From positions 10,948 to 74,947 of the forward strand of contig JAGCYH010000029.1 in the NCBI GenBank assembly GCA_017960905.1: a stretch of 64,000 bases of DNA, written 5' to 3'. Positions 4,272-37,179 of this stretch are shown here, piece after piece. This DNA comes from Bacteroidales bacterium. Its GTDB lineage: Bacteria > Bacteroidota > Bacteroidia > Bacteroidales > Marinilabiliaceae. Both the position numbers and the translations under genes were made by a program. Each line of letters opens with the position of its first letter. Positions within the stretch are counted from its first letter, which is position 1. A model generated the notes under the pieces. It was not told the DNA's origin. It searched no databases and saw only the letters and a program-made list of their open reading frames with translations.

Positions 4272-5765
4272 ATGAACAAAGTACTTCCCATTTTTCTGTT
4301 CTTCCTTTTCGCTACGCAGGCTATGGCGAAAGATTTTGATTTTTCCGTCCAAAGCAACGGGCAAACGCTTTATTACAAAAAAACAAGCGATAAAGAAGTC
4401 TCTGTAGTATATCCAAACAAGTCAGGAGATGACTATTATAGCGGTTATACTAAGCCATCAGGCGATTTGACTATTCCACAAACTGTCACTGACGACGGTG
4501 TAAAATATACGGTTACAAGCATTGGCAAATATGCGTTCGAAGGTTGCAGTGGCCTGTCATCCGTCACTATCCCCGAGTCGGTTACAAGCATTGGCGAAAG
4601 TGCGTTCGAAGGTTGCATTGGCCTGAAATCAGTCACTATCCCCAATTCGGTTACAAGCATTAGTGTAGGTGCGTTCTGTTCTTGTAGCAGTCTGGCGTCA
4701 ATCATCATAGGCAATTCTGTTACAAGCATTGGTCGACAAGCGTTCGAAGGTTGCAGCGGTCTGACATCAGTCTCCATCCCAAAGTCTGTTACAAGCATTG
4801 GTGGCTTTGCGTTCAACCTTTGCAGTGGTCTGGAATCAGTCACCATCTCCAATTCTGTTACATCCATTGACAGAGATGCGTTCCGTAGTTGCCGTGGCCT
4901 GACAAAAGCCGAATTTGCCAGTATTGAGAGTCTGTGCAGTATAAATTTTGGTGGTCAATTTGCAAATCCGTTAAAATACGCTCATCGTCTCTACATAATA
5001 GGAGATGATAATGAAGTTAAAGCTTTGGTAATTCCCGAATCGGTTACTAGCATTAGCTGTGCGTTCTCTGGTTGCAGTGGCCTGACATCTGTCACCATCC
5101 CAAATACGGTTACAAGCATTGACGAATATGCGTTCTGTGAATGCACTGGCCTGACATCAGTCACCATACCTAATTCGGTTACAAGCATTGGCGAAGGTGC
5201 GTTCCGTGGTTGCAGCGGCCTGGCATCAGTCACCATCCCCAATTCGGTTAAAAGCATTGACGAAGATGCGTTCTATGATTGTAGCAATGCCACCTTGTAT
5301 TGCGAAGTTGAAGAAACTTCAAAACCTGGCGGTTGGAATTCTAAGTGGAACGATAGCGGCAGGCCGGAAAAATGGGGATGCAAGGTGATAAGAGCTGCGG
5401 TAAACGATGAAGAATACGGTACAGTGGCTACCGCTGGCGAGAACTATGCCGTAAGGGGCGACGATGGCTCGCTGTGGTATCTGAAAGAGACCACAAATGG
5501 CACAGCCACACTCACTGCCACGCCCAAAGATGGCTATCACTTTGTGAAGTGGCAAGAAGAGCCCGACGCGGCTGCTACACTTAACATAGACGAGGTTACT
5601 GAAAGCAAAACATACACTGCAGTTTTCGCCAAAGACGAACCGACATCGATAAAGAACAACAGCGCTGGTAATGTCCGCAAAGTTACCAAGGTGCTCGGTC
5701 CCGACGGCCTCTACATCATCAAAGATGGGGTGAAATACAATATGCTCGGCGAGAAAGTAAATTGA
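4272..5765 (+). CDS. BspA-type leucine-rich-repeat protein with C-terminal beta-sandwich-like region and short conserved tail
   Basis: Signal peptide MNKVLPIFLFFLFATQAMA. About 10 LRR units (IPNSVTSIGE.AFEGCSGLTSVT) of 23 aa. C-terminal GYHFVKW-type repeat region and a YIIKDGVKY tail. Confidence 0.8.
   Translation: MNKVLPIFLFFLFATQAMAKDFDFSVQSNGQTLYYKKTSDKEVSVVYPNKSGDDYYSGYTKPSGDLTIPQTVTDDGVKYTVTSIGKYAFEGCSGLSSVTIPESVTSIGESAFEGCIGLKSVTIPNSVTSISVGAFCSCSSLASIIIGNSVTSIGRQAFEGCSGLTSVSIPKSVTSIGGFAFNLCSGLESVTISNSVTSIDRDAFRSCRGLTKAEFASIESLCSINFGGQFANPLKYAHRLYIIGDDNEVKALVIPESVTSISCAFSGCSGLTSVTIPNTVTSIDEYAFCECTGLTSVTIPNSVTSIGEGAFRGCSGLASVTIPNSVKSIDEDAFYDCSNATLYCEVEETSKPGGWNSKWNDSGRPEKWGCKVIRAAVNDEEYGTVATAGENYAVRGDDGSLWYLKETTNGTATLTATPKDGYHFVKWQEEPDAAATLNIDEVTESKTYTAVFAKDEPTSIKNNSAGNVRKVTKVLGPDGLYIIKDGVKYNMLGEKVN
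4494..5300 (+). repeat. 69-bp periodic intragenic tandem repeat (23-aa LRR units) with high nucleotide identity
   Basis: A recurring ..TCGGTTACAAGCATTGGCGAA.GTGCGTTC...GGTTGCAG.GGCCTG.CATC.GTCAC.ATCCC.. unit, interrupted at ~4870-5030. The repeat also produces repetitive antisense ORFs (4445..4867, 4991..5257). Confidence 0.85.
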
Positions 5766-14106: not shown

Positions 14107-14190
14107 ATGAGTAAAGTATAGTAAAGTATAAAGAGTAAAGTATAAAGAGTAAAGTGTAATGTGTAGAGACGTTGCGTGCAACGTCTCAAT
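14107..14190 (-). repeat. inverted counterpart: GTAAAG-rich run followed by hairpin GAGACGTTGC..GCAACGTCTC
   Basis: Its reverse complement reads GAGACGTTGCACGCAACGTCTCTACACATTACACTTTACTCTTTATACTTTACTC.... It shares the CGTCTCTA junction and the TACACTTTACTCT and CTTTACTCTTTA blocks with 12185..12262. Confidence 0.7.
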
Positions 14191-14396: not shown

Positions 14397-15569
14397 ATGA
14401 AGAAGCTTTATTCTATTTTTGCGCTGCTTATAGCAGCAAATGTAACAGCACTTGCCGATGCCCCCGACTTCGAATATGTTGACCTTGGTCTGCCTTCGGG
14501 TACATTGTGGGCCAAATGGAATGTAGGCGCCACTGCGCCTCAGGGATTTGGCGATTATTTCGCTTGGGGCGAGGTGGAGCCTTACTATTCGTCATTAGAC
14601 CCTCTGGCATGGAAAGAGGGCAAGGAGGACGGCTACGCTTGGTCTTCTTACAAGTATATTGACGCCAACGTATTTAGCAATTCTGAGATTCTTGAAAAGG
14701 GTTTGTGTGTAACAAAATACACCTTTGCTGATGGCCAAACCAGCGGCGTTTGGTATGACAGTGAGGGTAATTTTATTGGCGACAATAAAACCCTGCTCGA
14801 ACCCGCCGATGATGCTGCTACCGTAAACTGGGGCGCAGGATGGATTATGCCCTCAAATGAACAATGGCAGGAGCTAATTGACGAATGTTATTCTGTATGG
14901 ACCGATGACTATAACGGAACGGGAGTAGCAGGTATCATAGTATATGCCACTGATGTTGAAGCTGATAAAGGAGTGTATGTCAAATCAGGAGAAACACCCA
15001 AAGAGTCGTACATTATTGGCCCCGATAACCATATTTTCTTGCCAGCCTCTGGATACTATGATGGTGCGGTTCTTAATGATGGGTTTTATGGATGGTCGGC
15101 TTCGGCCTCAACAGATGAATACTCGTACTATTGTTTGTATCCGTGTCTAGATAATGGTGTTTTTGGCAATAGCCGAGGAGGCCGATTTTTTGGTGACCCA
15201 GTTCGTGCGGTGCGTGCCAAGAGTTATACTGTGCAAATACAGCAGCCTGCCGAAAATGGCGGAATTATATTGGAAGATGACGATATAAGCCTTGCCGAAG
15301 GCGTGTTAGAGCGCACCATACTTCACTTCAAAGCCGATCCTAACGATGATTACGAACTCGATGAATGGACTGGCTGCAAAGCCGATGGTACGCTGGTGGT
15401 AACAGGCAATGCCACAGTTACTTGCTCGTTCAAACCGAAAACAACCACAGCAGTTAAAAACGAAAAAGCCGACGCGCTAAAAGTGCAGAAAGTGATTGAA
15501 AACGGCACAATGTACATCATCAGAGATGGTGAGAAATACAGCCTGCAAGGTGTGAAATGTAATGAGTAA
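14397..15569 (+). CDS. secreted protein with DUF1566/FISUMP-like N-domain and conserved short C-terminal tail
   Basis: Signal peptide MKKLYSIFALLIAANVTALA. Motifs YVDLGLPSGTLWAKWNVGA..GDYFAWGE and GWIMPSNEQWQEL. C-terminal beta-sandwich-like region and a YIIRDGEKY tail shared with 4272..5765. Confidence 0.6.
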   Translation: MKKLYSIFALLIAANVTALADAPDFEYVDLGLPSGTLWAKWNVGATAPQGFGDYFAWGEVEPYYSSLDPLAWKEGKEDGYAWSSYKYIDANVFSNSEILEKGLCVTKYTFADGQTSGVWYDSEGNFIGDNKTLLEPADDAATVNWGAGWIMPSNEQWQELIDECYSVWTDDYNGTGVAGIIVYATDVEADKGVYVKSGETPKESYIIGPDNHIFLPASGYYDGAVLNDGFYGWSASASTDEYSYYCLYPCLDNGVFGNSRGGRFFGDPVRAVRAKSYTVQIQQPAENGGIILEDDDISLAEGVLERTILHFKADPNDDYELDEWTGCKADGTLVVTGNATVTCSFKPKTTTAVKNEKADALKVQKVIENGTMYIIRDGEKYSLQGVKCNE

Positions 15570-15632: not shown

Positions 15633-15890
15633 CGTTACATTCGGTGTTTTCTCTGCAGTAAGGCAGCATGTTTCAGTGTTTTCCGAGTGTTTCGGGGTTA
15701 AAAATACTTTGCGCTTTCAGCGCGGCAACAATGGTAATACATTGTTTCCCAAGGCGTTGCCTTGGGTTCTGGATTTTTGCCCTTTCAGGGCGTTGTTCAT
15801 TTTTCATTGTTAATTGTTAATCGTTCATTCTCAATTAGTTTCATTTGTCCGACGCCGCAAGGCGTCATTTGTTCTGTTTTGTTTTATTCG

Positions 15891-16080
15891 GTGATAATTT
15901 TATCGTGTTTTTCGTGTTTTCCGTGGTTATTTTCGTAATTGGCTACGCCGAACTTCGTTTCGTAATTCGTAATTCGTAATTTTCTCCGTGTCCTCTGTTT
16001 TCTCCGCGTTCTCTGTGATATATTTTTATCGTTTCTTCCGTGGTTAAAATTCGTATTTCGTAATTCAAAATTCGTAATTA
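15891..16080 (+). repeat. composite short-repeat region: duplicated ~50-bp unit, (TTCGTAA)3 microsatellite, 17-18-bp doublet
   Basis: GTGATAATTTTATCGTG..TTCCGTGGTTA..TTCGTAATT (15891-15950) recurs as GTGATATATTTTTATCGT..TTCCGTGGTTA..TTCGTAATT (16016-16079). TTCGTAA x3 lies at 15959..15981. TTCTCCGTGTCCTCTGT/TTCTCCGCGTTCTCTGT lies at ~15982..16016. Confidence 0.8.
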
Positions 16081-19395: not shown

Positions 19396-19530
19396 CACAA
19401 ATCACCGAACAAAACCGCCTCAAATCACCGAACAAATTCTCCTCAAATCACCGAATGAATTCACCTCAAATCACCGAATGAATTCGCCACAAATCACCGA
19501 ATGAATTCGCCACAAATCACCGAAAAATTG
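19396..19530 (+). repeat. 6 x 23-bp exactly phased tandem repeat upstream of DUF4143 ATPase gene
   Basis: The core CAAATCACCGAA starts at 19398, 19421, 19444, 19467, 19490 and 19513, a constant 23-bp step. The last three units are near-identical (CAAATCACCGAATGAATTCGCCA). Confidence 0.95.
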
Positions 19531-19589
19531 TAAAAATCTTTGGTTGACTGATATTTAAATCATATCTTAGCGCCCAAAATAGTAAAGCT

Positions 19590-20864
19590 ATGGCAAAATA
19601 TAAACAACGAATAGCAGATAGGCTTCTTGAGCGTAAGGTTCTCGGGAAGGGTGCAGTTCTTATAGAAGGTCCGAAATGGTGTGGTAAAACTACCACAGCG
19701 AAGCAAATAGCAAAAAGTATCCTTGATTTTGGCAATGCATCTATATTGAAGCAAAGCGCGCAAATGATCGAGATAAGCCCTCGGTCACTTTTAGAAGGCG
19801 CTGCACCTCGTCTTATTGACGAATGGCAGGCGCTGCCTGCCATTTGGGATTCTATACGTAGCGAGGTCGACAAGCGGGGAGAGCCATCACAGTTTATTCT
19901 CACGGGTTCGTCAGTTCTGCCAAATGCCGATGAAACCATACATAGTGGAACAGGACGTTTTGCGTATATCATGATGCGCCCGATGAGCCTGTATGAATCA
20001 GGTGAATCTTCTGGATCCGTTAGTTTAAAAGATTTGTTTGAAGGTAAAACGCCTGATGTACAACAAAATAAGTTAGAAATAGAAGACATAGCCTATCTTG
20101 TTTGTCGGGGTGGATGGCCTTGGGCAACATTAATATCCAAAGACGTAGCGCTTGATCAGGCATTCGACTATGTTGATTCTGTGATTACTCGTGATATACA
20201 GCGTGTTGATAAGGTAAAAAGAAGCCCGGAGCGTGCAAGGCTACTTTTGCGTTCGTATGCCAGGAACATATCCCAACAAGTTTCATACGCAACATTCCGT
20301 AAAGATATGCTCACAAATGATGCAAGTTCGTTAGACGAAGACACTGTTGCCGACTATATTGCAGCATTAAAAAAACTATTTGTAATAGAAGATCTTGCCG
20401 CATGGAATCCCAATTTGCGAAGCAAATCTGCAATAAGAAATAGCGATACTCGGCATTTCGTAGATCCAAGCATCGGAACAGCAGTCTTGGGCCTTGGTCC
20501 TCAAGATCTAATAAATGATTTGGATACATTCGGGTTTTTCTTTGAGGATATGGTGGTGCGCGATCTGCGCGTGTATGCCGATGCCTTAGACGGTCAAATC
20601 TACCATTACAGAGACAGTAATGGCCTTGAGTGCGACACTGTCATCCATCGACGTAATGGCAGTTATGCGCTTCTTGAAGTGAAACTGGGCGGTGAAAAAC
20701 TTATAAATGAAGCCGCTAAATCTATGATTGAACTATCACGTAATATTGATACGGACAAAATGCAGTCACCATCATTCATGGCTGTTATTGTCGGTGTTGG
20801 AAAATACGCTTATAAAAGACCTGATGGGGTATTTGTCATCCCGATAGGCTGTTTGAAAGATTAA
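19590..20864 (+). CDS. AAA+ ATPase with C-terminal DUF4143 / PD-(D/E)xK-like domain (COG1373 type)
   Basis: Walker A GPKWCGKTT, Walker B RLIDEWQ, and C-terminal ECDTVI....ALLEVKLG, a nuclease-fold-like D...E.K motif. Confidence 0.8.
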   Translation: MAKYKQRIADRLLERKVLGKGAVLIEGPKWCGKTTTAKQIAKSILDFGNASILKQSAQMIEISPRSLLEGAAPRLIDEWQALPAIWDSIRSEVDKRGEPSQFILTGSSVLPNADETIHSGTGRFAYIMMRPMSLYESGESSGSVSLKDLFEGKTPDVQQNKLEIEDIAYLVCRGGWPWATLISKDVALDQAFDYVDSVITRDIQRVDKVKRSPERARLLLRSYARNISQQVSYATFRKDMLTNDASSLDEDTVADYIAALKKLFVIEDLAAWNPNLRSKSAIRNSDTRHFVDPSIGTAVLGLGPQDLINDLDTFGFFFEDMVVRDLRVYADALDGQIYHYRDSNGLECDTVIHRRNGSYALLEVKLGGEKLINEAAKSMIELSRNIDTDKMQSPSFMAVIVGVGKYAYKRPDGVFVIPIGCLKD

Positions 20865-21019: not shown

Positions 21020-22462
21020 TCACTCTGTTTTAAGAAGTGTTTTGATTTGCGTTTTTAGAGCGTTCTCCACATCTTCCATTGCCGCTTTGTATTTGTCGTA
21101 ATCACTCGCTGTTTGCTCTACACGAATGCCTATGCCATAAATATTGCCTCCTAAACCACACAATTGTCTTGGTATTGACAATACCGCTTTTTCTTCTTGT
21201 GTTTCATCAAGTTCAATCGGGTATAACAATGCACAATGTTTTGCTGGCAAAACGTGCATATAGGTAATCATTTGGAACAAATCGTCGCGACAAATAGAAA
21301 TATTGTTTTGCGTTTCATCGATTTCGCCACGCACCAAACGCTTATATTTAGCATCAAAAACAAAAGACTTCTCGCCTGTTTCATCGCCTTTAGTTTGTAT
21401 ATAAAAATCAGGGAAATACTTGTGGCTGCCTTTGTATATCTGAATGCCATTTTCGCCCGTTTTATTTTTGGCGTGCGTTATGCCAAGTTTCTTTTTTTCA
21501 AAAATCGTATTCAAATACTCCTCCCAAAGCCAAGCGCCATCGAACAGAATGCCGTAGATTTGGTCTTTCTGGCGGCCGTATTTGAGTTCCTCGTGGCGAA
21601 GGATTTGTAGGCAGAGCCGCTGCAGGTCGGTGTAGGCCGAAAAGTACGGGTGCCGCACGGGCCGAAGGTTCTGGCTGACGATTTTGGCGCGCTCGCGGGC
21701 ATTGTAGGTTGGCGTGGCCATAACAATCTGGCTGACAGCCGTTTTGGTGTCGGCATCGTTGTTCAGAATGGACTGCCCCTGCTCCTTGCCGCGAATGAAC
21801 TCAATGGTGTGGCGGACAAGTTGCGTGAGTTCGTTGTCGTAGGTGTGCTCGCGCGTGGTGTAGGCCACCGTGCCTCGGAACGGAATGTTCTGGCGGATAT
21901 GGCGGCTCACATCAATGGGTCCGCGAATGTTGGCGTCGTTGTGCTCAAAGCGGCGGTACTTCTTGAAAACACCCTGCGCCACCGCTTTCCGCAGAAAATG
22001 GGGAAACAGATAGAACAGGAAATCGAAAATCCGCTCGGCGCTTGTGTCGTGCTTTAAATCGAACAGATTGATTGCGAACACTTTCTGCAACATATAGTGC
22101 AGAAAATAGTCGTTGCCGTCGGTTTGGGCGAAACGCGAGCGAATGTCAATTTGCGTCTGGTTCACGCCCACAAAGCCCATTATGTTGCCCGTGCTGATTT
22201 TGCCGTCGGAAAACGACAGAATCTGGTCATCGCCGATTTCGTCGCCGTGCTGTTTCAAATCGGGCGGAAAGACAAGCAGGTTTGGGTTGTTTTTACGTTG
22301 CGTTTCAATTGTTTTGTTGGCAATAATACCAATAGCATCTTTCACATCCTCCAATTCGGCATCCGTTGCAAAATCACGATTATAGCGGTCGTTGGATTCT
22401 GCATCTAACGAAATAGGCTCGTGGTTGTCCGTTATCCAAATACTACTCATACTTGTCAGCAT
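21020..22462 (-). CDS. mcrC: McrC-like 5-methylcytosine restriction system nuclease subunit
   Basis: Overlaps the upstream McrB-like gene by 8 or 20 nt, depending on the ATG chosen. C-terminal PD-(D/E)xK motif FPDFYI....FVFDAKYK. Confidence 0.75.
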   Translation of the reverse strand: MLTSMSSIWITDNHEPISLDAESNDRYNRDFATDAELEDVKDAIGIIANKTIETQRKNNPNLLVFPPDLKQHGDEIGDDQILSFSDGKISTGNIMGFVGVNQTQIDIRSRFAQTDGNDYFLHYMLQKVFAINLFDLKHDTSAERIFDFLFYLFPHFLRKAVAQGVFKKYRRFEHNDANIRGPIDVSRHIRQNIPFRGTVAYTTREHTYDNELTQLVRHTIEFIRGKEQGQSILNNDADTKTAVSQIVMATPTYNARERAKIVSQNLRPVRHPYFSAYTDLQRLCLQILRHEELKYGRQKDQIYGILFDGAWLWEEYLNTIFEKKKLGITHAKNKTGENGIQIYKGSHKYFPDFYIQTKGDETGEKSFVFDAKYKRLVRGEIDETQNNISICRDDLFQMITYMHVLPAKHCALLYPIELDETQEEKAVLSIPRQLCGLGGNIYGIGIRVEQTASDYDKYKAAMEDVENALKTQIKTLLKTE

Positions 22463-25301
22463 TTGAATATCCGTATGCTATTGCTAACCTTTTGAGTTTC
22501 TTATATATATCTGTTGTTCCTCGCAAATACTCAAACAGTAACCCTTCCAAATGGTATTCCCATAATTCATCAAAATTATAACTACCATCTTCCTTTTTGT
22601 AATTGGTAAGTTTCAAGAAATAACTTGCGCCAATGTGGTATGCCGACGACAAACCTTCGATAGGTTTATCTTCTTCTTTTTCATCATTTTCAAGTTTGTG
22701 CCAAATAACCTTGTTAATGTTCTCTAATTTTTCCCTTGCTATTCCGATTGTTTCATCGTCAGGTTTCAATGAATTTCCATTTTCATCCTTTCCCCACGCT
22801 TCCGCGCTATCAAGCATTGCTTTCGAATCATCGGCAGTGACTTCCTTAAACGCGAACCTGCGGCGGAAGGCAAAATCCATACTCTCAACGCTGCGGTCGA
22901 TATCGTTCATTGTACCAATGATATAAACGTTTTCGGGAACGAAGAAATGACCGCAATTATCAGAATCAGTAATATTTAAAGCATCATCGAACACATTAGG
23001 CGTTTTCTGAAGATTTGCATATTGAGTTCTCAAATCATTGCATTTTTCAAGTCCTCGATATCCAGGGTCAATGGCAAAAAAAAGTTCTCCAAATATTTTA
23101 TTGATTTCTCCACGATTGATTTCATCTATTATGAAAACAAATTTTGCAGTTTTATCTGGCATTTTTTCTATAATCATTTTTCCATATCGTGATTCCACAT
23201 ATGACGCAATAGCTGTTACGTAAGGCTTCCAATCTATTATTTTGCCACTTTCCATATATACTTGAAGCATCTCTTGGGTTATGCTCATTTCTGTTGCCGC
23301 TTCAGTTTGCGGAATTGCAACCAAATTGCCATTCCGATTAACCCTTACATTAAATTTCTTTTTCTGAACAGGCGTCTCAAACTCAATACTACCTCCATTT
23401 TCAATAATTTCATCAACAAATGATTTATAGGCATCATCAAAATTGAATATTTGTTGATTACCATTTTGGCTTTTCAATGCCCGTTCACAAAACTCTTTGA
23501 AAACACCATCTTTGTGTTCAAAACCGACATTGCCGTCTTCGTTTGGCGGTGTTGGCCGCAACCCCTCAACAAAGTCGGTGTAGTCGTACGACGGGTGGAA
23601 TTGGACAAAGCCGATTTCATTGTCTGTGCAACCCATTGCCTGGGCTATCTGCTTTGCCAAATAGGTTTTGCCTGTGCCTGGGGCGCCTGTTAGGATTAGG
23701 TTGTGGTTGGATTTGAGAAGGTTAACGTAAGTGTTCAAATTTGCTTCCATATCAAGTTCGCTTTTTGTTTTAATTTCAATATAAGCCACGGCATTTTGAC
23801 GACCTGCATATTTGCCGTTATAAGTAACAAATTGATTATAATTTAATTGCTTATCCTTATTTATCCATTCAAATTTATCAATTAAGAATACAATTTTGGC
23901 CGCCTTATTATCATCCGCATAATCTGAAAAGCTATCTTCATACCAACACGGCTCGTAGTTATTTTTCCAATCATTTTTTTTGCTATCGTAATCTTTCCTT
24001 GTGGCATAATCAATAATACGAAACCTACAATTTGTTATATTGCTTGAGATATTATAAAGCCAAAAATCATCATTTTGCTTAATCACTTTTTTCAATTCTA
24101 AAATAACTTCATCAAAATCAGAAAGTTGATTTTTCCAAATTATACCATAATTGTGTTCTGCTAAATCTTTCGCAAAATCATCCATCCAATTATTAGAATC
24201 CCTAGCAATCAATCCTTGTATTATAATCTGCTCTTTTTTAATTATTTCAAGTAAATTCGGGAAACTCTCAAAAAGTTCCCAACATACATCTTGCGCAAGC
24301 AAAAGGTTGCTTTGCAAAAGACCGTGAATACTGCTGTTTTCAATTATTTCGTGCAATTCACTATCGTTTTCAATCAAATGAACCAATGGTTCAAGCAATT
24401 GCAAGTAATGCTCGTATTTCTTTCCTGCACTTTCTGTTGCCACGCCCAAATACTGGCATAGTTTTCTATAAAAACCATCTTTGTATATGGTGTAACGCTG
24501 TGGATTACTGCACGTTAGAATAGTTGCCGCCATTCGCTCATCGTTGGCTTTACTATTATAATTAGTATCAGACACCAAATCAGCCATTTGGGTTTTGAAA
24601 GCTGCCAACCTGTCTGTCAACGACAAAGACTCGTCAACCAATTGGGTTAAAACAGTCTCGAATTGCGACAATTTATTGTTAACCAAATATTTCAAGACAT
24701 TGTTGTCTCTAACAACATCATATAAATTACAGAAACCACCTTGTGTGGCATTGTTAGGGTGCTTAATATGATTCTGCACTATTTCAATTGGCTTTTTCCC
24801 CTGCGTTGCTGTAATAAGTTGCCATTTATATATTTCGTACGCGCCTTCAGCATTGAAATCAACTTCTCGGCGGTGCGCTTTATAGGTTTCAAGCATCCGC
24901 CAATAGAGCCAATCTTTCACTGCTTCAGCCAATTCGGGGCGCAATTGCCATTCGAAAGAGCCTTCTTCACCATTTTTCAATGGGCGGCCTATCCCCATTG
25001 GTATTGGCCAATAATTTTTGTTTCCTTCGGTGTTAATACATTCAAAACGATTGAGTTTGTTTTGAACGAACTTCCCAAATTGCATAATCGTAGCATTGAG
25101 CGACGCTGGCTTTTTGCCAAACGGTTTGCCTGCCGAAACGCAACTTCCCTTATGGTCGGGCAAATAGTAAAAGCAAGCCACGGCTTCTTTGTAATTATCG
25201 CTAACTGCCTTGTCTTTAAGAAATCCCAACCATTCGTCTTTGCTAATATCAACATCAGAACGGTAAACATCGCCGTCTTTATACTCTTGTATGGTTTCCA
25301 T
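22443..25301 (-). CDS. mcrB: McrB-like AAA+ GTPase restriction subunit with ~530-aa N-terminal extension
   Basis: Walker A LTGAPGTGKTY, IIDEINRG, and the McrB signature IIGTMNDIDRSVESMDFAFRRRF. The long N-terminal region has no motif I recognise. Confidence 0.85.
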   Translation of the reverse strand: METIQEYKDGDVYRSDVDISKDEWLGFLKDKAVSDNYKEAVACFYYLPDHKGSCVSAGKPFGKKPASLNATIMQFGKFVQNKLNRFECINTEGNKNYWPIPMGIGRPLKNGEEGSFEWQLRPELAEAVKDWLYWRMLETYKAHRREVDFNAEGAYEIYKWQLITATQGKKPIEIVQNHIKHPNNATQGGFCNLYDVVRDNNVLKYLVNNKLSQFETVLTQLVDESLSLTDRLAAFKTQMADLVSDTNYNSKANDERMAATILTCSNPQRYTIYKDGFYRKLCQYLGVATESAGKKYEHYLQLLEPLVHLIENDSELHEIIENSSIHGLLQSNLLLAQDVCWELFESFPNLLEIIKKEQIIIQGLIARDSNNWMDDFAKDLAEHNYGIIWKNQLSDFDEVILELKKVIKQNDDFWLYNISSNITNCRFRIIDYATRKDYDSKKNDWKNNYEPCWYEDSFSDYADDNKAAKIVFLIDKFEWINKDKQLNYNQFVTYNGKYAGRQNAVAYIEIKTKSELDMEANLNTYVNLLKSNHNLILTGAPGTGKTYLAKQIAQAMGCTDNEIGFVQFHPSYDYTDFVEGLRPTPPNEDGNVGFEHKDGVFKEFCERALKSQNGNQQIFNFDDAYKSFVDEIIENGGSIEFETPVQKKKFNVRVNRNGNLVAIPQTEAATEMSITQEMLQVYMESGKIIDWKPYVTAIASYVESRYGKMIIEKMPDKTAKFVFIIDEINRGEINKIFGELFFAIDPGYRGLEKCNDLRTQYANLQKTPNVFDDALNITDSDNCGHFFVPENVYIIGTMNDIDRSVESMDFAFRRRFAFKEVTADDSKAMLDSAEAWGKDENGNSLKPDDETIGIAREKLENINKVIWHKLENDEKEEDKPIEGLSSAYHIGASYFLKLTNYKKEDGSYNFDELWEYHLEGLLFEYLRGTTDIYKKLKRLAIAYGYSNADKYE

Positions 25302-29193: not shown

Positions 29194-29235
29194 TTTTTAA
29201 ATGTAACTTATTTATTCTCAATGTTTTAGTATTGA

Positions 29236-29383
29236 GAATTGAAGTTTTTGTAAACAAGAATTGAACATTTTGTGAAAGAGAATTGAACATTTTGCAAAAG
29301 AGATTTGAAGATTTTGTAAGCAAGAATTGAACATTTTGTATAAAAGAATTGAAGATTTTGTAATGTAGAATTGAACATTTTGT
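29236..29383 (+). repeat. 7 x 22-bp exactly phased tandem repeat upstream of second DUF4143 ATPase gene
   Basis: A 16-mer, GAATTGAACATTTTGT or a close variant, starts at 29236, 29258, 29280, 29302, 29324, 29346 and 29368. Each copy is followed by a variable 6-mer. Confidence 0.95.
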
Positions 29384-29390
29384 ATATTTG
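29383..29390 (+). promoter_or_regulatory. -7 box TAtaTTTG upstream of second DUF4143 ATPase
   Basis: Matches TAnnTTTG, 24 nt before the ATG. It sits between the last 22-bp repeat and the palindrome. Confidence 0.45.
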
Positions 29391-29412
29391 CAGCAATTAT
29401 AATTGCTGCAAA
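29387..29412. promoter_or_regulatory. perfect 26-bp palindrome (candidate operator) ending 1 nt before the ATPase ATG
   Basis: TTTGCAGCAATTA|TAATTGCTGCAAA; I verified the reverse complement by hand. It overlaps the 3' end of the TAtaTTTG -7 box at 29383..29390. Confidence 0.7.
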
Positions 29413-29413
29413 T

Positions 29414-30604
29414 ATGTATAACTATGTTCGAAGTATAAATCAAGATGTGCTCGGTCGTATCAACGAACCTCGGCGTTTTATTCAGGTTATTGCAGGTCCG
29501 CGTCAGGTGGGCAAATCAACTATGGTGCATCAGGTGCTTTCTCAAGTGAAAATACCGTATCTGTCGGAGAATGCCGATGCTGTAGATGCTGCCGATTCTG
29601 ATTGGATTCGCCGTGTCTGGAACACGGCTCGTAATAAGATGCTTGTGCTCAATTTGAGCGAATTTTTGCTCGTTATCGACGAGATACAAAAAATACGTAA
29701 TTGGAGTGAGGTCGTCAAGCGCGAATGGGATGCAGACTCTCTTAATGGTGTGAATATCAAGGTGATATTATTGGGTAGCTCACGCCTTATGTTGCGAAAA
29801 GGTCTTACAGAATCGCTTGCCGGGCGTTTTGAGCTGATACGCATGAGCCATTGGAGCTATCAAGAAATGCGTGATGCCTTCGGCTTCACGCTCGATCAGT
29901 ATATTTATTTCGGCGGTTATCCTGGTGCTGCGCCATTCATTAGTAATGAGAAACGCTGGCGGCGTTACATTAAGGACGCACTCGTCGCGCCAGCTATTGG
30001 TAAGGATGTTATATTAACATCGAATATCTATAAGCCTGCGCTTATGCAGCAGGTTTTTGAAATTGGTTGCTCGTATTCGGCTCAGTTGCTGTCGCTTACG
30101 AAGATTGTTGGGCAGTTGCAGGATGTTGGCAACGCCACCACTGTTGCGCATTATATTTCGCTACTCAATCAAAGCGAATTGCTTACGGGTTTGCAGAAAT
30201 ACGTCTTCGATGAGGCTCGCAAGTACAACTCTGTGCCGAAGTTCCAAGTGTACAATAATGCCTTGCTGACTGCTTACCGAGGGAAAAATTACGAAACTGA
30301 CCGCACTAATCCTGATGTTTGGGGCAGGTGGGTTGAGTCGGCTGTTGGCGCACATCTTGTGTGCCGTGCCAACGAGCTCGACTACAGAGTGTTATATTGG
30401 CGCGAACGTAACGATGAGGTCGATTTCATAGTTTATGGTCAGGGCAAATGCATATCTATTGAGGTAAAAAGTGGCCGTCACGCAAAAAATAAAGGTATGA
30501 AGTTATTTCATGATTTATATCAGCCGCAGATGGAATTTATTGTAGGCACAACTGGAATGCCGGTCGAAGAGTTTTTGTTAACTGATTTGGAACACTTTTT
30601 CTGA
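29414..30604 (+). CDS. AAA+ ATPase with C-terminal DUF4143 / PD-(D/E)xK-like domain (COG1373 type)
   Basis: Walker A GPRQVGKST, Walker B LLVIDEIQKI, and C-terminal EVDFIVYG..CISIEVKSG. Confidence 0.8.
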   Translation: MYNYVRSINQDVLGRINEPRRFIQVIAGPRQVGKSTMVHQVLSQVKIPYLSENADAVDAADSDWIRRVWNTARNKMLVLNLSEFLLVIDEIQKIRNWSEVVKREWDADSLNGVNIKVILLGSSRLMLRKGLTESLAGRFELIRMSHWSYQEMRDAFGFTLDQYIYFGGYPGAAPFISNEKRWRRYIKDALVAPAIGKDVILTSNIYKPALMQQVFEIGCSYSAQLLSLTKIVGQLQDVGNATTVAHYISLLNQSELLTGLQKYVFDEARKYNSVPKFQVYNNALLTAYRGKNYETDRTNPDVWGRWVESAVGAHLVCRANELDYRVLYWRERNDEVDFIVYGQGKCISIEVKSGRHAKNKGMKLFHDLYQPQMEFIVGTTGMPVEEFLLTDLEHFF

Positions 30605-30660
30605 TTCTGCTAATAGATTGTGTGTTTATAAATATCTGTATAAACGATACATAGCTATAT

Positions 30661-30808
30661 TGATAGAAGATTTTGTAACCGAGATTTGAAGATTTTGTAA
30701 AAAATATTTGAACATTTTGTAAGAGAGAATTGAACATTTTGTAAGAGAGATTTGAACATTTTGTAAAAGTCATTTGAGTATTTTGCGAAAACAAATTGAA
30801 CAAAAAAA
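30661..30808 (+). repeat. 7 x 22-bp phased tandem repeat downstream of the same ATPase gene (same word, same orientation)
   Basis: Units start at 30661, 30683, 30705, 30727, 30749, 30771 and 30793, e.g. GATTTGAAGATTTTGT, GAATTGAACATTTTGT, GATTTGAACATTTTGT. The outermost units are degenerate. Confidence 0.9.
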
Positions 30809-30843
30809 AGCGGCAAAACGCAGATGCGTTTCCACCGCTTTTT
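30802..30843. terminator. bidirectional terminator between ATPase cassette and M16 peptidase gene
   Basis: A-run, an interrupted hairpin GCGG..AAACGCA-GA-TGCGTTT..CCGC, then a T-run. Confidence 0.6.
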
Positions 30844-30871
30844 GAAAAATTTGTGAATTTACCCTTTTATA

Positions 30872-36096: not shown

Positions 36097-36245
36097 TTTG
36101 GGGTGAACGATGTGGTTTTTTGCCCTATTTTGGGGCAAAATACCACTATTGGGGACTAAAATTGTTGCGTTATTTGGTTTTTGGGGTGAAAAATTCTGAT
36201 TTTGGGGTGAAATTTTGCGGATTTTTTTTGAAATTTTTACCCCAA
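36097..36245 (+). repeat. five direct TTGGGG(T/C/A) words plus one inverted copy upstream of the LytTR gene
   Basis: TTGGGG starts at 36098, 36130, 36149, 36181 and 36202. The last two full words, TTTTGGGGTGAAA, are 21 bp apart. An inverted CCCCAA lies at 36240..36245. Confidence 0.8.
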
Positions 36246-36274: not shown

Positions 36275-36282
36275 TATTTTTG
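36275..36282 (+). promoter_or_regulatory. -7 box TAttTTTG upstream of LytTR gene
   Basis: Matches TAnnTTTG, 40 nt before the ATG at 36322 and just downstream of the TTGGGG word cluster. Confidence 0.45.
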
Positions 36283-36321
36283 TGCTCGAACTGGAAACGA
36301 GATTTTTTTTATTGTAAAAAA

Positions 36322-37179
36322 ATGGATTTGGGCAAACTCATACCGCTCTATTTGTTGGAAAAACGGAATATCATCAGATTGATACTTCTGACGGCCACTT
36401 TTGCGTTGATTTTCATCAACACATATCAGCCTTTCGGGTCTGAGAACTGGCTCACGCAGTACGATTCGCCCAAATATATGTACTTTGTCTATTCTTCGGT
36501 TTTGGTGCTTTTCGGCATGTTGGTGGTTACCATCAGCCGCGTCATTATGTATAAGTTGCACAAGTACAAAGGCTACACGCCGATTCTCGGACATTATTTG
36601 TTGTGGATTCTTGCCGAGCTGTTTTTTATGTCGCTCTCGTTTGTGATGTTCGAGAAGTTAGCTTTCGACGACTCTCGTAATGTTATAGAGCTTTTCAAAA
36701 CGTCGGCGGTCAACACGTCGCTGGTGCTTTTGCTGCCTTATAGCGTGCTCTGGCTCTACTTCTCGTGGAGCGATAAGAAACGCCTTATCGAAGAGTTGAA
36801 AAAGAATCAAACCATTGAGAATCATAGCTCTAAGTCGCAGATGATAAACTTCTTCGACAACAAGGGTGAGGTGAAGTTCAGCGTGAAACTGCACGACCTG
36901 GTTTACATCAAAGGCGCTGATAATTATATAATTGTATATTATAAGAACGACGACAAAGTGTCGTCGATAATGATACGATACTCGATGAAGCAGGTCGAGG
37001 ACGAGCTGTCGCCGAAAGGCGTCATCCGTTGTCATCGCTCCTATATTGTCAACACGATGCTTGTGAAGACCTTCACGCGCTCGAGCGATGGCTTTGTTAT
37101 TTCGCTCGAGGCGCCTGGAGATGTATCTGTGCCAGTATCAAAGAGTTATGCTAAAGATGTTTTTGAATTGTTTGGTTAG
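36322..37179 (+). CDS. membrane-anchored LytTR-domain DNA-binding protein
   Basis: The ATG at 36322 lies 40 nt after a TAttTTTG box; the track start at 36280 lies inside that box. Four N-terminal TM segments. C-terminal LytTR signature VYIKGADNYIIVYY......RCHRSYIVN. Confidence 0.78.
   Translation: MDLGKLIPLYLLEKRNIIRLILLTATFALIFINTYQPFGSENWLTQYDSPKYMYFVYSSVLVLFGMLVVTISRVIMYKLHKYKGYTPILGHYLLWILAELFFMSLSFVMFEKLAFDDSRNVIELFKTSAVNTSLVLLLPYSVLWLYFSWSDKKRLIEELKKNQTIENHSSKSQMINFFDNKGEVKFSVKLHDLVYIKGADNYIIVYYKNDDKVSSIMIRYSMKQVEDELSPKGVIRCHRSYIVNTMLVKTFTRSSDGFVISLEAPGDVSVPVSKSYAKDVFELFG

Follow-up and report, generated by a model that had tools for sequence, protein, structure and literature searches.

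What are short, strictly phased direct repeats doing beside the gene of a predicted ATPase-nuclease, and do they belong to that gene or to the DNA around it? The question is raised by a 64,000-nt stretch of contig JAGCYH010000029.1 from a Bacteroidales bacterium of the family Marinilabiliaceae, the whole of which is hereafter called the window, where a gene encoding a 396-amino-acid (aa) AAA_14+DUF4143 protein (29414-30604, + strand; from the open reading frame (ORF), Pfam and a PADLOC PDC-S01 match) is preceded and followed by arrays of repeats with a 22-bp step, and where a second DUF4143 gene has an array of its own. Arrays of this kind are conserved, linked to the gene, specific to each DUF4143 subfamily and positioned at the promoter. 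With moderate confidence, and from the comparison of sequences, each array is read here as the cognate head-to-tail binding site of the adjacent protein, which would thereby regulate its own synthesis.

The upstream array (29236-29389, + strand), recognised by direct reading, TRF and a motif scan and displayed as a logo, consists of seven units of 22 bp starting at 29236, 29258, 29280, 29302, 29324, 29346 and 29368, i.e., with an exact 22-bp step, all seven being 0-2 mismatches away from GAATTGAACATTTTGT. Each unit associates a conserved core of 16-18 nt, namely (a)GAATTGAACATTTTGTa, with a variable spacer of 4-6 nt. At ≤3 mismatches the 16-mer has 12 matches in the window vs 1.28 expected, a number to which none of 100 shuffles got; 11 of these matches lie inside the two arrays flanking the gene, and a single extra match, with 3 mismatches, is located elsewhere in the 64 kb. 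The end of the last unit is overlapped by the -7 promoter box TATATTTG (29383-29390, + strand, direct reading), which fits TAnnTTTG, reportedly the Bacteroidetes -7 consensus given by Bayley and co-workers in 2000, and a TTTG in the sixth unit (29357-29360), 22 nt 5' of this box, could be a candidate -33 element. The flanks of the gene have a GC content of 26-31%, the gene itself 46-47% and the neighbouring genes 50-54%, these neighbours converging on the gene, with rsmA (RrnaAD) on the + strand and an M16 peptidase gene on the - strand. On all these points the initial annotation, made from the letters of the window alone, was accurate: it had reported seven exactly stepped upstream copies, the last one meeting a -7 box, and an AT-rich unit placed between convergent rsmA and M16 peptidase genes, with which both domain matches and strands agree.

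The same holds for the protein, previously described as an ATPase with a C-terminal motif of the PD-(D/E)xK nuclease type. ORF 29414-30604 has Pfam matches to AAA_14 (PF13173; 1e-23) and DUF4143 (PF13635; 8e-22) and contains Walker A (GPRQVGKST), Walker B (LLVIDEIQ) and nuclease (EVDFIV...IEVKSG) motifs, with G33, K34, D89 and E90 as well as D337 and E350-V-K352 invariant in 54 aligned relatives. As such, the domain order is an AAA+ ATPase, the helical half of DUF4143 and a C-terminal PD-(D/E)xK nuclease. In PADLOC, the PDC-S01 models match both DUF4143 proteins of the window, i.e., PDLC04791 the 396-aa protein (1e-177) and PDLC04790 the other one, of 424 aa (2e-63). DUF4143 is listed as a PD-(D/E)XK family whose function is not known (PMC3424549). 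PDC-S01 is reported as the prokaryotic defence candidate ranking fourth by frequency, with ~29,500 bacterial and 10,000 archaeal copies and validation pending (PMC12988326), as well as the most frequent single locus in rumen genomes (PMC13356809); of eight candidates tried in E. coli, four gave protection against T4, T5 or T7, and one PDC-S01 representative was not one of these four (bioRxiv 10.1101/2024.09.26.614923).

The association of array and gene can be followed in both directions. From the array word, the genome-wide search for the 16-mer that the initial annotation had suggested was carried out on one genome per species, covering 185,579 species, with a pattern of two phased cores (TTGAANRTTTTG, 10 nt, TTGAANRTTTTG); 95 stretches matched and 80 loci were read. 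Nearly all the stretches are in Bacteroidales, with roughly a single locus in each genome, and 56-57 of the 80 loci have an ortholog of the 396-aa gene (54-78% identical), always on the same strand, that starts 0-130 bp 3' of the array (287 bp in one). Most of the other Bacteroidales loci show the array beside a truncated or internally deleted gene (L027, L037, L049, L079, L093, L048 and L090); further loci have an array truncated at the locus edge, a downstream array (L056, which shares its contig with L073) or a short array on its own, and six matches in other phyla look like chance. On this evidence, the array word marks the 396-aa gene family and is neither a dispersed repeat nor the signature of a regulon. 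As a separate observation, the array is found joined to a 3' or 5' gene remnant (L027, L048, L079, L090, L093, L037, L049) or alone (solo arrays L077, L080, L092); gene decay is frequent, with deletion ends tending to lie at the array.

From the gene, four orthologs of the 396-aa protein were looked up by exact protein (84, 78, 69 and 64% identical), and all four carry an array, of about 13, 6, 10 and 3-4 units, respectively, in four unrelated neighbourhoods, which is the outcome expected from the initial annotation. No other gene is consistently linked to the array-bearing loci in the neighbourhoods of the orthologs. Within the species, the contigs have flanks identical to those of the window, the gene with its arrays is identical in three long assemblies spanning the locus, with which three short contigs agree up to their ends, and the 396-aa locus is fixed between rsmA and the M16 peptidase gene on contigs of up to 101 kb from several samples. 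Around the nearest RsmA orthologs (74-83% identical) the neighbourhoods are rearranged, with no empty site that would give the ends of a cassette.

A second instance of the same arrangement is present in the window itself. The second AAA_14+DUF4143 gene (19590-20864, + strand; Pfam, PADLOC PDLC04790) encodes the 424-aa protein, about 20% identical to the 396-aa protein, and its array, detected by TRF, comprises five full 23-bp units and a sixth core (19398-19524, + strand). The core CAAATCACCGAA is invariant in all six, the other 11 nt of the unit being variable; the array ends 65 nt 5' of the ATG, and between the two lies a -7-like box, AATCTTTG (19535-19542, + strand). With the 396-aa and 424-aa paralogs, one genome therefore holds two words and two periods (22 and 23 bp). 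The second gene adjoins a McrBC system located directly downstream on the - strand (21020-25301), composed of a McrC-like gene (PF10117) and a gene encoding a 952-aa AAA_5 ATPase, probably McrB, and this DUF4143 copy has a defence-island context.

Relatives of the second gene extend the pattern well beyond the window. A metagenome scan provided 80 of them (25-86% identical), 77 with enough upstream sequence, and scoring their flanks for 21-23-bp phased arrays, another course proposed in the initial annotation, yielded a TRF array before the ATG in 56 of the 77. All but one of these arrays (55) end 28-86 bp before the ATG, and the period is 23 in 52 and 22 in 4; 17 of 20 relatives lacking a TRF array nonetheless score best at a phase of 23 bp, through two or three weaker copies. 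The density of arrays with a period of 15-35 is 2.0 per kb in upstream windows of 400 bp vs 0.03 per kb in the other 341 kb, a 62-fold enrichment, and two of the 11 arrays found elsewhere in these loci are same-word arrays just after the gene. The presence of an array beside the gene is thus general in two DUF4143 subfamilies, as a family-wide rule, with position, strand and period kept across proteins 25-99% identical. In locus L020 (4332-7100), two adjacent DUF4143 paralogs each carry an array of their own, with units of 23 bp in one case and 22 bp in the other; tandem DUF4143 paralogs of different subfamilies were observed there as well as at L040:5269-7880 and L061:2026-4700. Taken together, the movement of arrays with orthologs into unrelated contexts, the absence of scattered copies and the difference in word between paralogs support the view that the arrays belong to the gene.

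The anatomy of the unit indicates where selection acts. In the first subfamily, for which 243 phased units from 60 loci were compiled in a logo, each of positions 5-16 (TTGAACATTTTG) reaches about 2 bits, conservation is partial at 1-4 and 17-18, and positions 19-22 stay at about 0 bits. A conserved core combined with a random spacer implies selection on each core, and the arrays therefore did not arise by recent duplication. Units of the second subfamily have in common the loose frame CAAaT..CCGAAyrAAA, with clade-specific changes, and unit similarity amounts to 0.65-0.8 at ≥70% protein identity and to chance level at <50% (Spearman 0.39; Mantel 0 of 2000); period (23 bp) and position remain constant while the words drift. 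In locus L191, the 22-bp word is even GC-rich.

The position relative to the promoter was read from a consensus scan of 53 ortholog loci. The -7 box comes after the array, 23-33 nt before the ATG, in the window and in some 19 further ortholog loci. Among the second-gene relatives, 28 loci have the box placed between array and ATG, and none has it before the array. About half of the second-gene loci have Bacteroidetes -7 boxes and the rest TATAAT/GGAGG-type signals, so the pattern reaches beyond Bacteroidales; at the sigma-70-type loci, the array is close to the -35/-10 region.

In the mechanism proposed here, one protomer of the AAA+/winged-helix/nuclease protein would bind each conserved 12-18-bp core via the helical half of DUF4143. 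Since the step of the direct repeats, 22 bp for the one subfamily and 23 bp for the other, is close to two helical turns, the protomers would be lined up head to tail, as in AAA+ spirals or iteron-bound initiators, with an offset per unit of about +34 degrees at 22 bp and +69 degrees at 23 bp, if 10.5 bp per turn is assumed. As the array is on or beside the core promoter, or immediately past the start, its occupancy would shut the gene's own transcription, and such autorepression would keep a potentially toxic ATPase-nuclease low and self-limited. Where a second array follows the gene, looping or pairing might take place, as with the P1 incA or F incC arrays. We thus infer that the gene product binds its own array, represses itself and uses its helical region as the DNA reader.

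The predicted structure of the protein bears on this role of the helical region. The AlphaFold model of the 396-aa protein (pLDDT 73 overall) is confident for the AAA+ core and the nuclease domain, and confidence is low in the helical region (residues 190-284; pLDDT 31-51 over 190-250); a separate model of residues 185-396 is no better, with pLDDT 33-49 over the first 110 residues. A fold search returned generic AAA+ matches (TM about 0.3), with ORC subunits, archaeal Cdc6-DNA, RFC and PABY2304 near the top, and these four, in which the ATPase is paired with a winged helix, are counted in favour of the proposed mechanism; the nuclease domain gave weak PD-(D/E)xK fold matches. By sequence, the PDB contains nothing for the single protein, and a profile gave marginal P-loop/AAA matches together with an archaeal ATPase (2fna). 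At about residues 217-264, the segment ...LSLTKIVGQLQDVGNATTVAHYISLLNQSELLTGL... is a putative helix-turn-helix (HTH) with a wing, following the pattern T-V-x-x-Y-I-x-x-L-x4-L-L. In the subfamily with a conserved word, this putative reader segment is as conserved as Walker A (entropy 0.5-1.06 vs a mean of 1.12), and in the subfamily with a variable word it shows above-average variability (1.98-2.28 vs 1.54); as such, the putative DNA-reading region varies as a specificity determinant would.

Further from the two subfamilies, DUF4143 genes have no tandem arrays. Strong palindromes near the -10 box, the start site or the ATG were nonetheless observed in distant members, namely L192 (Coxiella pQpDG), L193 (Thermus), L194 (Collinsella plasmid record), L201, L211, L219 and L221. 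In the Thermus, Coxiella and Collinsella orthologs (45-47% identical), the palindromes are just 5' of the ATG, and in the Collinsella ortholog one pair of 16-bp palindromes stands before the gene and recurs behind it. Inverted repeats with at least 9 matches near the -10 box or start site are present at 9 of 23 distant DUF4143 genes from viral contigs vs 5% of shuffles. These inverted repeats would follow the same operator logic with dimer sites, and we count them in favour of binding by the adjacent protein; gene-specific operator-like elements hence seem general in the DUF4143 family, of which tandem arrays would be the form taken in two subfamilies.

Several observations weigh against an autoregulatory binding site. 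In about 31 of the 53 ortholog loci the -7 box (..TTTGCAGC) is 14-18 nt before the first unit, and in these leader-type loci the last unit ends 1-16 nt before the ATG, an arrangement that the initial annotation had not anticipated. With the -7 box before the array and the array running up to the ATG, the array would therefore be an mRNA leader in about 31 loci, for which a role at the RNA level is possible. No Pfam HTH family is found on the excised helical region, only DUF4143, and the winged helix comes from a sequence pattern in a region where AlphaFold confidence is about 30-50. The covariation of word and protein can arise from shared descent alone. The number of units varies from 2 to 13 across loci, which implies no fixed oligomer size. 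Finally, L086 (981-2620) matches L019 nearly perfectly in promoter and array but continues with the gene of a different ATPase-nuclease (AAA_35/AAA-ATPase_like + PDDEXK_3), and in L030 (1671-3212) the promoter and array common to L037 are followed by an RNA-ligase-like gene; arrays can therefore persist without their presumed partner gene. On the first point, a DNA operator is workable on either side of the start site, and an RNA element cannot act from upstream of it.

The fate of the gene in such loci is best considered with the array located after it in the window, both of which bear on mobility. The downstream array (30661-30808, + strand) lies between the stop codon and the terminator, probably in the 3' untranslated region (UTR). 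The initial annotation had counted seven further copies there in phase; orientation and phase stand, but the count comes down to four good units (30683, 30705, 30727 and 30749; 0-2 mismatches), two degenerate ones (30661 with 4 mismatches, 30771 with 5) and a half unit at 30793. The terminator hairpin (30801-30842, on neither strand in particular; from the sequence and a - strand hairpin call at 30815-32), which has A8 and T5 on its two sides, could act for the ATPase gene as well as for the M16 peptidase gene that converges on it. The 84% ortholog L016, in another genomic context, likewise has an array after the gene. Altogether, arrays on both sides occur in two of ~50 intact 396-aa orthologs with readable downstream sequence and on the L073/L056 contig, i.e., three loci in all, and a same-word array after the gene in two of the 77 second-gene relatives (L113 and L117), with no second gene beyond it in either. 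The downstream array is thus recurrent yet rare, and the bracketing of the gene by two arrays does not hold as a rule; since the two-sided bracket is rare, the general unit is array plus gene. A downstream array could be a looping partner, or the remnant of a tandem cassette whose gene was lost. Beside it, the final codons of the 396-aa gene (EFLLTDLEHFF; window 30570-30598) look like two array units (72% identical across 29 nt), which may be chance or may provide a substrate for deletions from array to gene end.

Arrays of this sort might be suspected of being sites of recombination or mobility, as boundaries of a cassette or as hot spots for insertion, exchange or deletion of the gene, perhaps with the encoded nuclease acting there. 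Gene and array do occur between housekeeping genes in contexts unrelated to each other, no feature common to the window and L016 lies further out than the arrays, L086 and L030 show replacement of the gene 3' of a conserved promoter and array, many deletions terminate on one side at the array (L027, L048, L079, L090, L093), solo arrays exist (L077, L080, L092), and direct arrays on both sides would permit excision by recombination. This explanation is nevertheless unlikely: most loci have no second array, neither a target-site duplication nor a linked recombinase or transposase is found, the cassette is unchanged in the three long same-species assemblies with the three short contigs in agreement, and a fixed position at the promoter with a subfamily-specific period and word is left unexplained.

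The persistence of arrays before non-cognate genes in L086 and L030 would also suit binding by a separate host factor, or an intrinsic promoter architecture made of phased A/T tracts, extra TTTG and UP-like or curved DNA. The units are AT-rich, with TTTG motifs like those of Bacteroidetes promoter elements, and some unit junctions read TAGATTTG, which is -7-like. The probability given to this explanation is low, because words and periods differ between paralogs of one genome, because about one array locus per genome makes no regulon, because the pattern reaches loci of the sigma-70/SD type and the GC-rich 22-bp word of L191, and because the TTTG motifs, with spacings of 9, 13 and 22 nt, are not at the distance of -33 and -7 elements.

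The leader-type loci lend themselves to another proposal, namely that the array acts as RNA, the repeat transcript neutralising the ATPase-nuclease or controlling translation, as in type III toxin-antitoxin (TA) systems (ToxIN). Apart from the roughly 31 of 53 ortholog loci in which the -7 box 14-18 nt before the first unit would make the array a 5' leader, the same leader layout is present in B. finegoldii (L195), the downstream array of the window stands before the terminator in the 3' UTR, and the family is a candidate defence gene. Type III TA systems (ToxIN, CptIN, TenpIN) likewise have tandem short direct repeats right before one defence-type gene, with the promoter coming first, as the -7 box does in many of the orthologs. 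Their units are however 34-45 nt long vs 22-23 nt in DUF4143 arrays, and the toxin family is another one, the 396-aa protein not being a ToxN/AbiQ-type RNase according to Pfam; DUF4143 arrays have neither a terminator before the gene nor RNA structure. In the window, the promoter box follows the array, as it does in the closest relatives and in all 28 Bacteroidetes-type second-subfamily loci, no terminator or hairpin separates array and ATG, and the array RNAs, which have no Rfam match, are no more stably folded than shuffles (z = -0.5, +0.5, -1.2). An RNA-based function is improbable on this account, and the window locus does not class as a type III TA system.

The geometry of the locus calls to mind iteron replicons, e.g., the R6K gamma origin (7 x 22 bp, pi protein), mini-P1 (incC-repA-incA), mini-F (ori2-repE-incC), RK2 and pPS10. 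In mini-P1, mini-F and R6K, arrays with a 22-bp step cover the promoter of the adjacent gene and a second array lies past it. The likeness is close: direct repeats of 17-22 bp at a ~22-bp step, an array over the promoter of the adjacent gene, a word of its own for each system and, on occasion, a second array of the same orientation after the gene. In those systems, the product of the adjacent gene binds the array and represses its own gene, where for DUF4143 such binding is predicted, and the DUF4143 product, encoded by a chromosomal, single-gene locus, combines an AAA+ ATPase with a PD-(D/E)xK nuclease and does not belong to the RepA/pi type. Taken literally, the arrays could then be the iterons of a minimal replicon that has integrated, the AAA+ protein being its ORC/Cdc6-like initiator, as would suit the AT-rich flanks, the presence of ORC/Cdc6 among the fold matches and the occurrence of relatives on plasmid records. 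That is very improbable: the window locus provides no evidence of replication and, by Pfam, no Rep-family (RepA/pi/TrfA-type) domain, only AAA_14, DUF4143 and weak AAA families; its chromosomal site between rsmA and the peptidase gene is stable in several assemblies; two or more such genes occur per genome; the plasmid-borne relatives are accessory genes in records with their own replicon types; and the nuclease domain would be left without explanation. Because it has no Rep protein and occupies a fixed chromosomal site, the window locus does not belong among the replicons. As for the arrays being non-functional slippage products or a generic dispersed repeat (REP/MITE), tandem repeats can grow by slippage and copy number does range from 2 to 13, but the conserved core and random spacer within arrays, together with the position, strand and period kept across proteins 25-99% identical and the 62-fold enrichment, make this hardly credible, and a generic REP/MITE was rejected given about one locus per genome and intact loci all 5' of the same gene family.

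Binding of an array by the product of the adjacent gene, as preferred here, has precedents outside replicons proper. DnaA with its DnaA boxes and archaeal Orc1/Cdc6 with its origin recognition box (ORB) elements share with the DUF4143 protein an ATPase of the initiator/clamp-loader branch combined with an HTH or winged helix (here putative) and arrays of boxes by their own gene, on which, in their case, the ATPase oligomerises. Unlike the strictly direct DUF4143 repeats, ORB elements are inverted around an unwinding region, the DUF4143 protein is also a nuclease, and its fold match to Orc1/Cdc6 is generic for AAA+ (TM about 0.3). Partition centromeres such as parC1/parC2 of pB171 par2 and parC of R1 flank and regulate their operon. 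These short direct-repeat arrays, upstream and sometimes downstream of the genes, are both the operator and the assembly site of a higher-order protein-DNA complex; in contrast to the single gene without partner of the DUF4143 locus, they involve a small adaptor (ParB/ParR) with a ParA/ParM ATPase. As to PADLOC PDC-S01 (AAA_14 + DUF4143, COG1373), the ATPase-plus-nuclease architecture is as in PMC12988326, and searchable published descriptions treat the protein alone, none with flanking arrays. In the searchable literature on DUF4143, COG1373, PDC-S01 or iteron-like repeats with defence, no account of flanking arrays was found. The earlier statement that no description of such an arrangement was known is correct for the protein family and not for the layout, which mini-P1, mini-F and R6K iterons precede; what is new is the protein family carrying an iteron-like or operator array. 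Likewise, the suggestion that the arrays are cognate loading or operator sites of the ATPase remains plausible and gains from sequence comparison; the self-contained cassette with two sides is partly supported, and both it and the palindrome are local features.

If the arrays are such sites, they would be the first concrete handle on PDC-S01, a family with neither a known mechanism nor a validated activity. The array would be a predicted DNA ligand for gel-shift, footprinting and cryo-EM, with autoregulation as a prediction, and suggests a possible reason for the poor heterologous behaviour of constructs without the native flank; the variety of words would constitute a natural set of orthogonal protein-site pairs, and for annotation the arrays would mark live, decayed and replaced copies of DUF4143 genes. 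A bolder proposal, which we regard as tentative and rather doubtful, is that gene and arrays form an autonomous unit, in which a head-to-tail filament of the AAA+ nuclease, nucleated on its own iteron-like array, would serve as a self-DNA 'home address', array occupancy or pairing would set both expression and activation as a defence or selfish nuclease, and the arrays would be the points where the cassette moves, is swapped or is lost, all of this as a general principle of PDC-S01.

At the start of the 396-aa gene, the window has one more conspicuous element, i.e., a perfect palindrome of 32 nt without loop (29384-29415, not assigned to a strand), whose 16 + 16-nt arms are ATATTTGCAGCAATTA (29384-29399) and TAATTGCTGCAAATAT (29400-29415). 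It had been given as 26 bp ending before the ATG; its perfection is right, but it is 32 nt long and enters the ATG, extending from the -7 box to the first two bases (AT) of this codon, and it likely contains the transcription start. Arms of 16 nt appeared in 0 of 100 shuffles. Among 59 orthologs, the 32-nt form is confined to the source species, the arms being ≤8 nt in the 58 others, and the palindrome was rejected as a conserved operator of the orthologs. The short-read contigs of the same species (L013, L014 and L015) all end within it (window 29412); the 32-nt palindrome breaks assemblies.

Elsewhere in the window, further repeats were noticed. Inside ORF 4272-5765, 69-bp and 138-bp repeats (4510-5281) are likely tandem protein repeats. 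Tandem repeats of 7-14 bp (AGTAAAGTATAAAG, TTCGTAA, TTGTTCA) are located on both sides (14110-14165 and 15793-16079) of a 390-aa ORF (14397-15569) that has no Pfam match. Lastly, a 21-bp direct repeat of 2.5 copies (ATTCGGATTTTGGGGTGAAAA; 36172-36225) lies just 5' of a LytTR-domain gene (36280-37179), of which it is probably the own operator.

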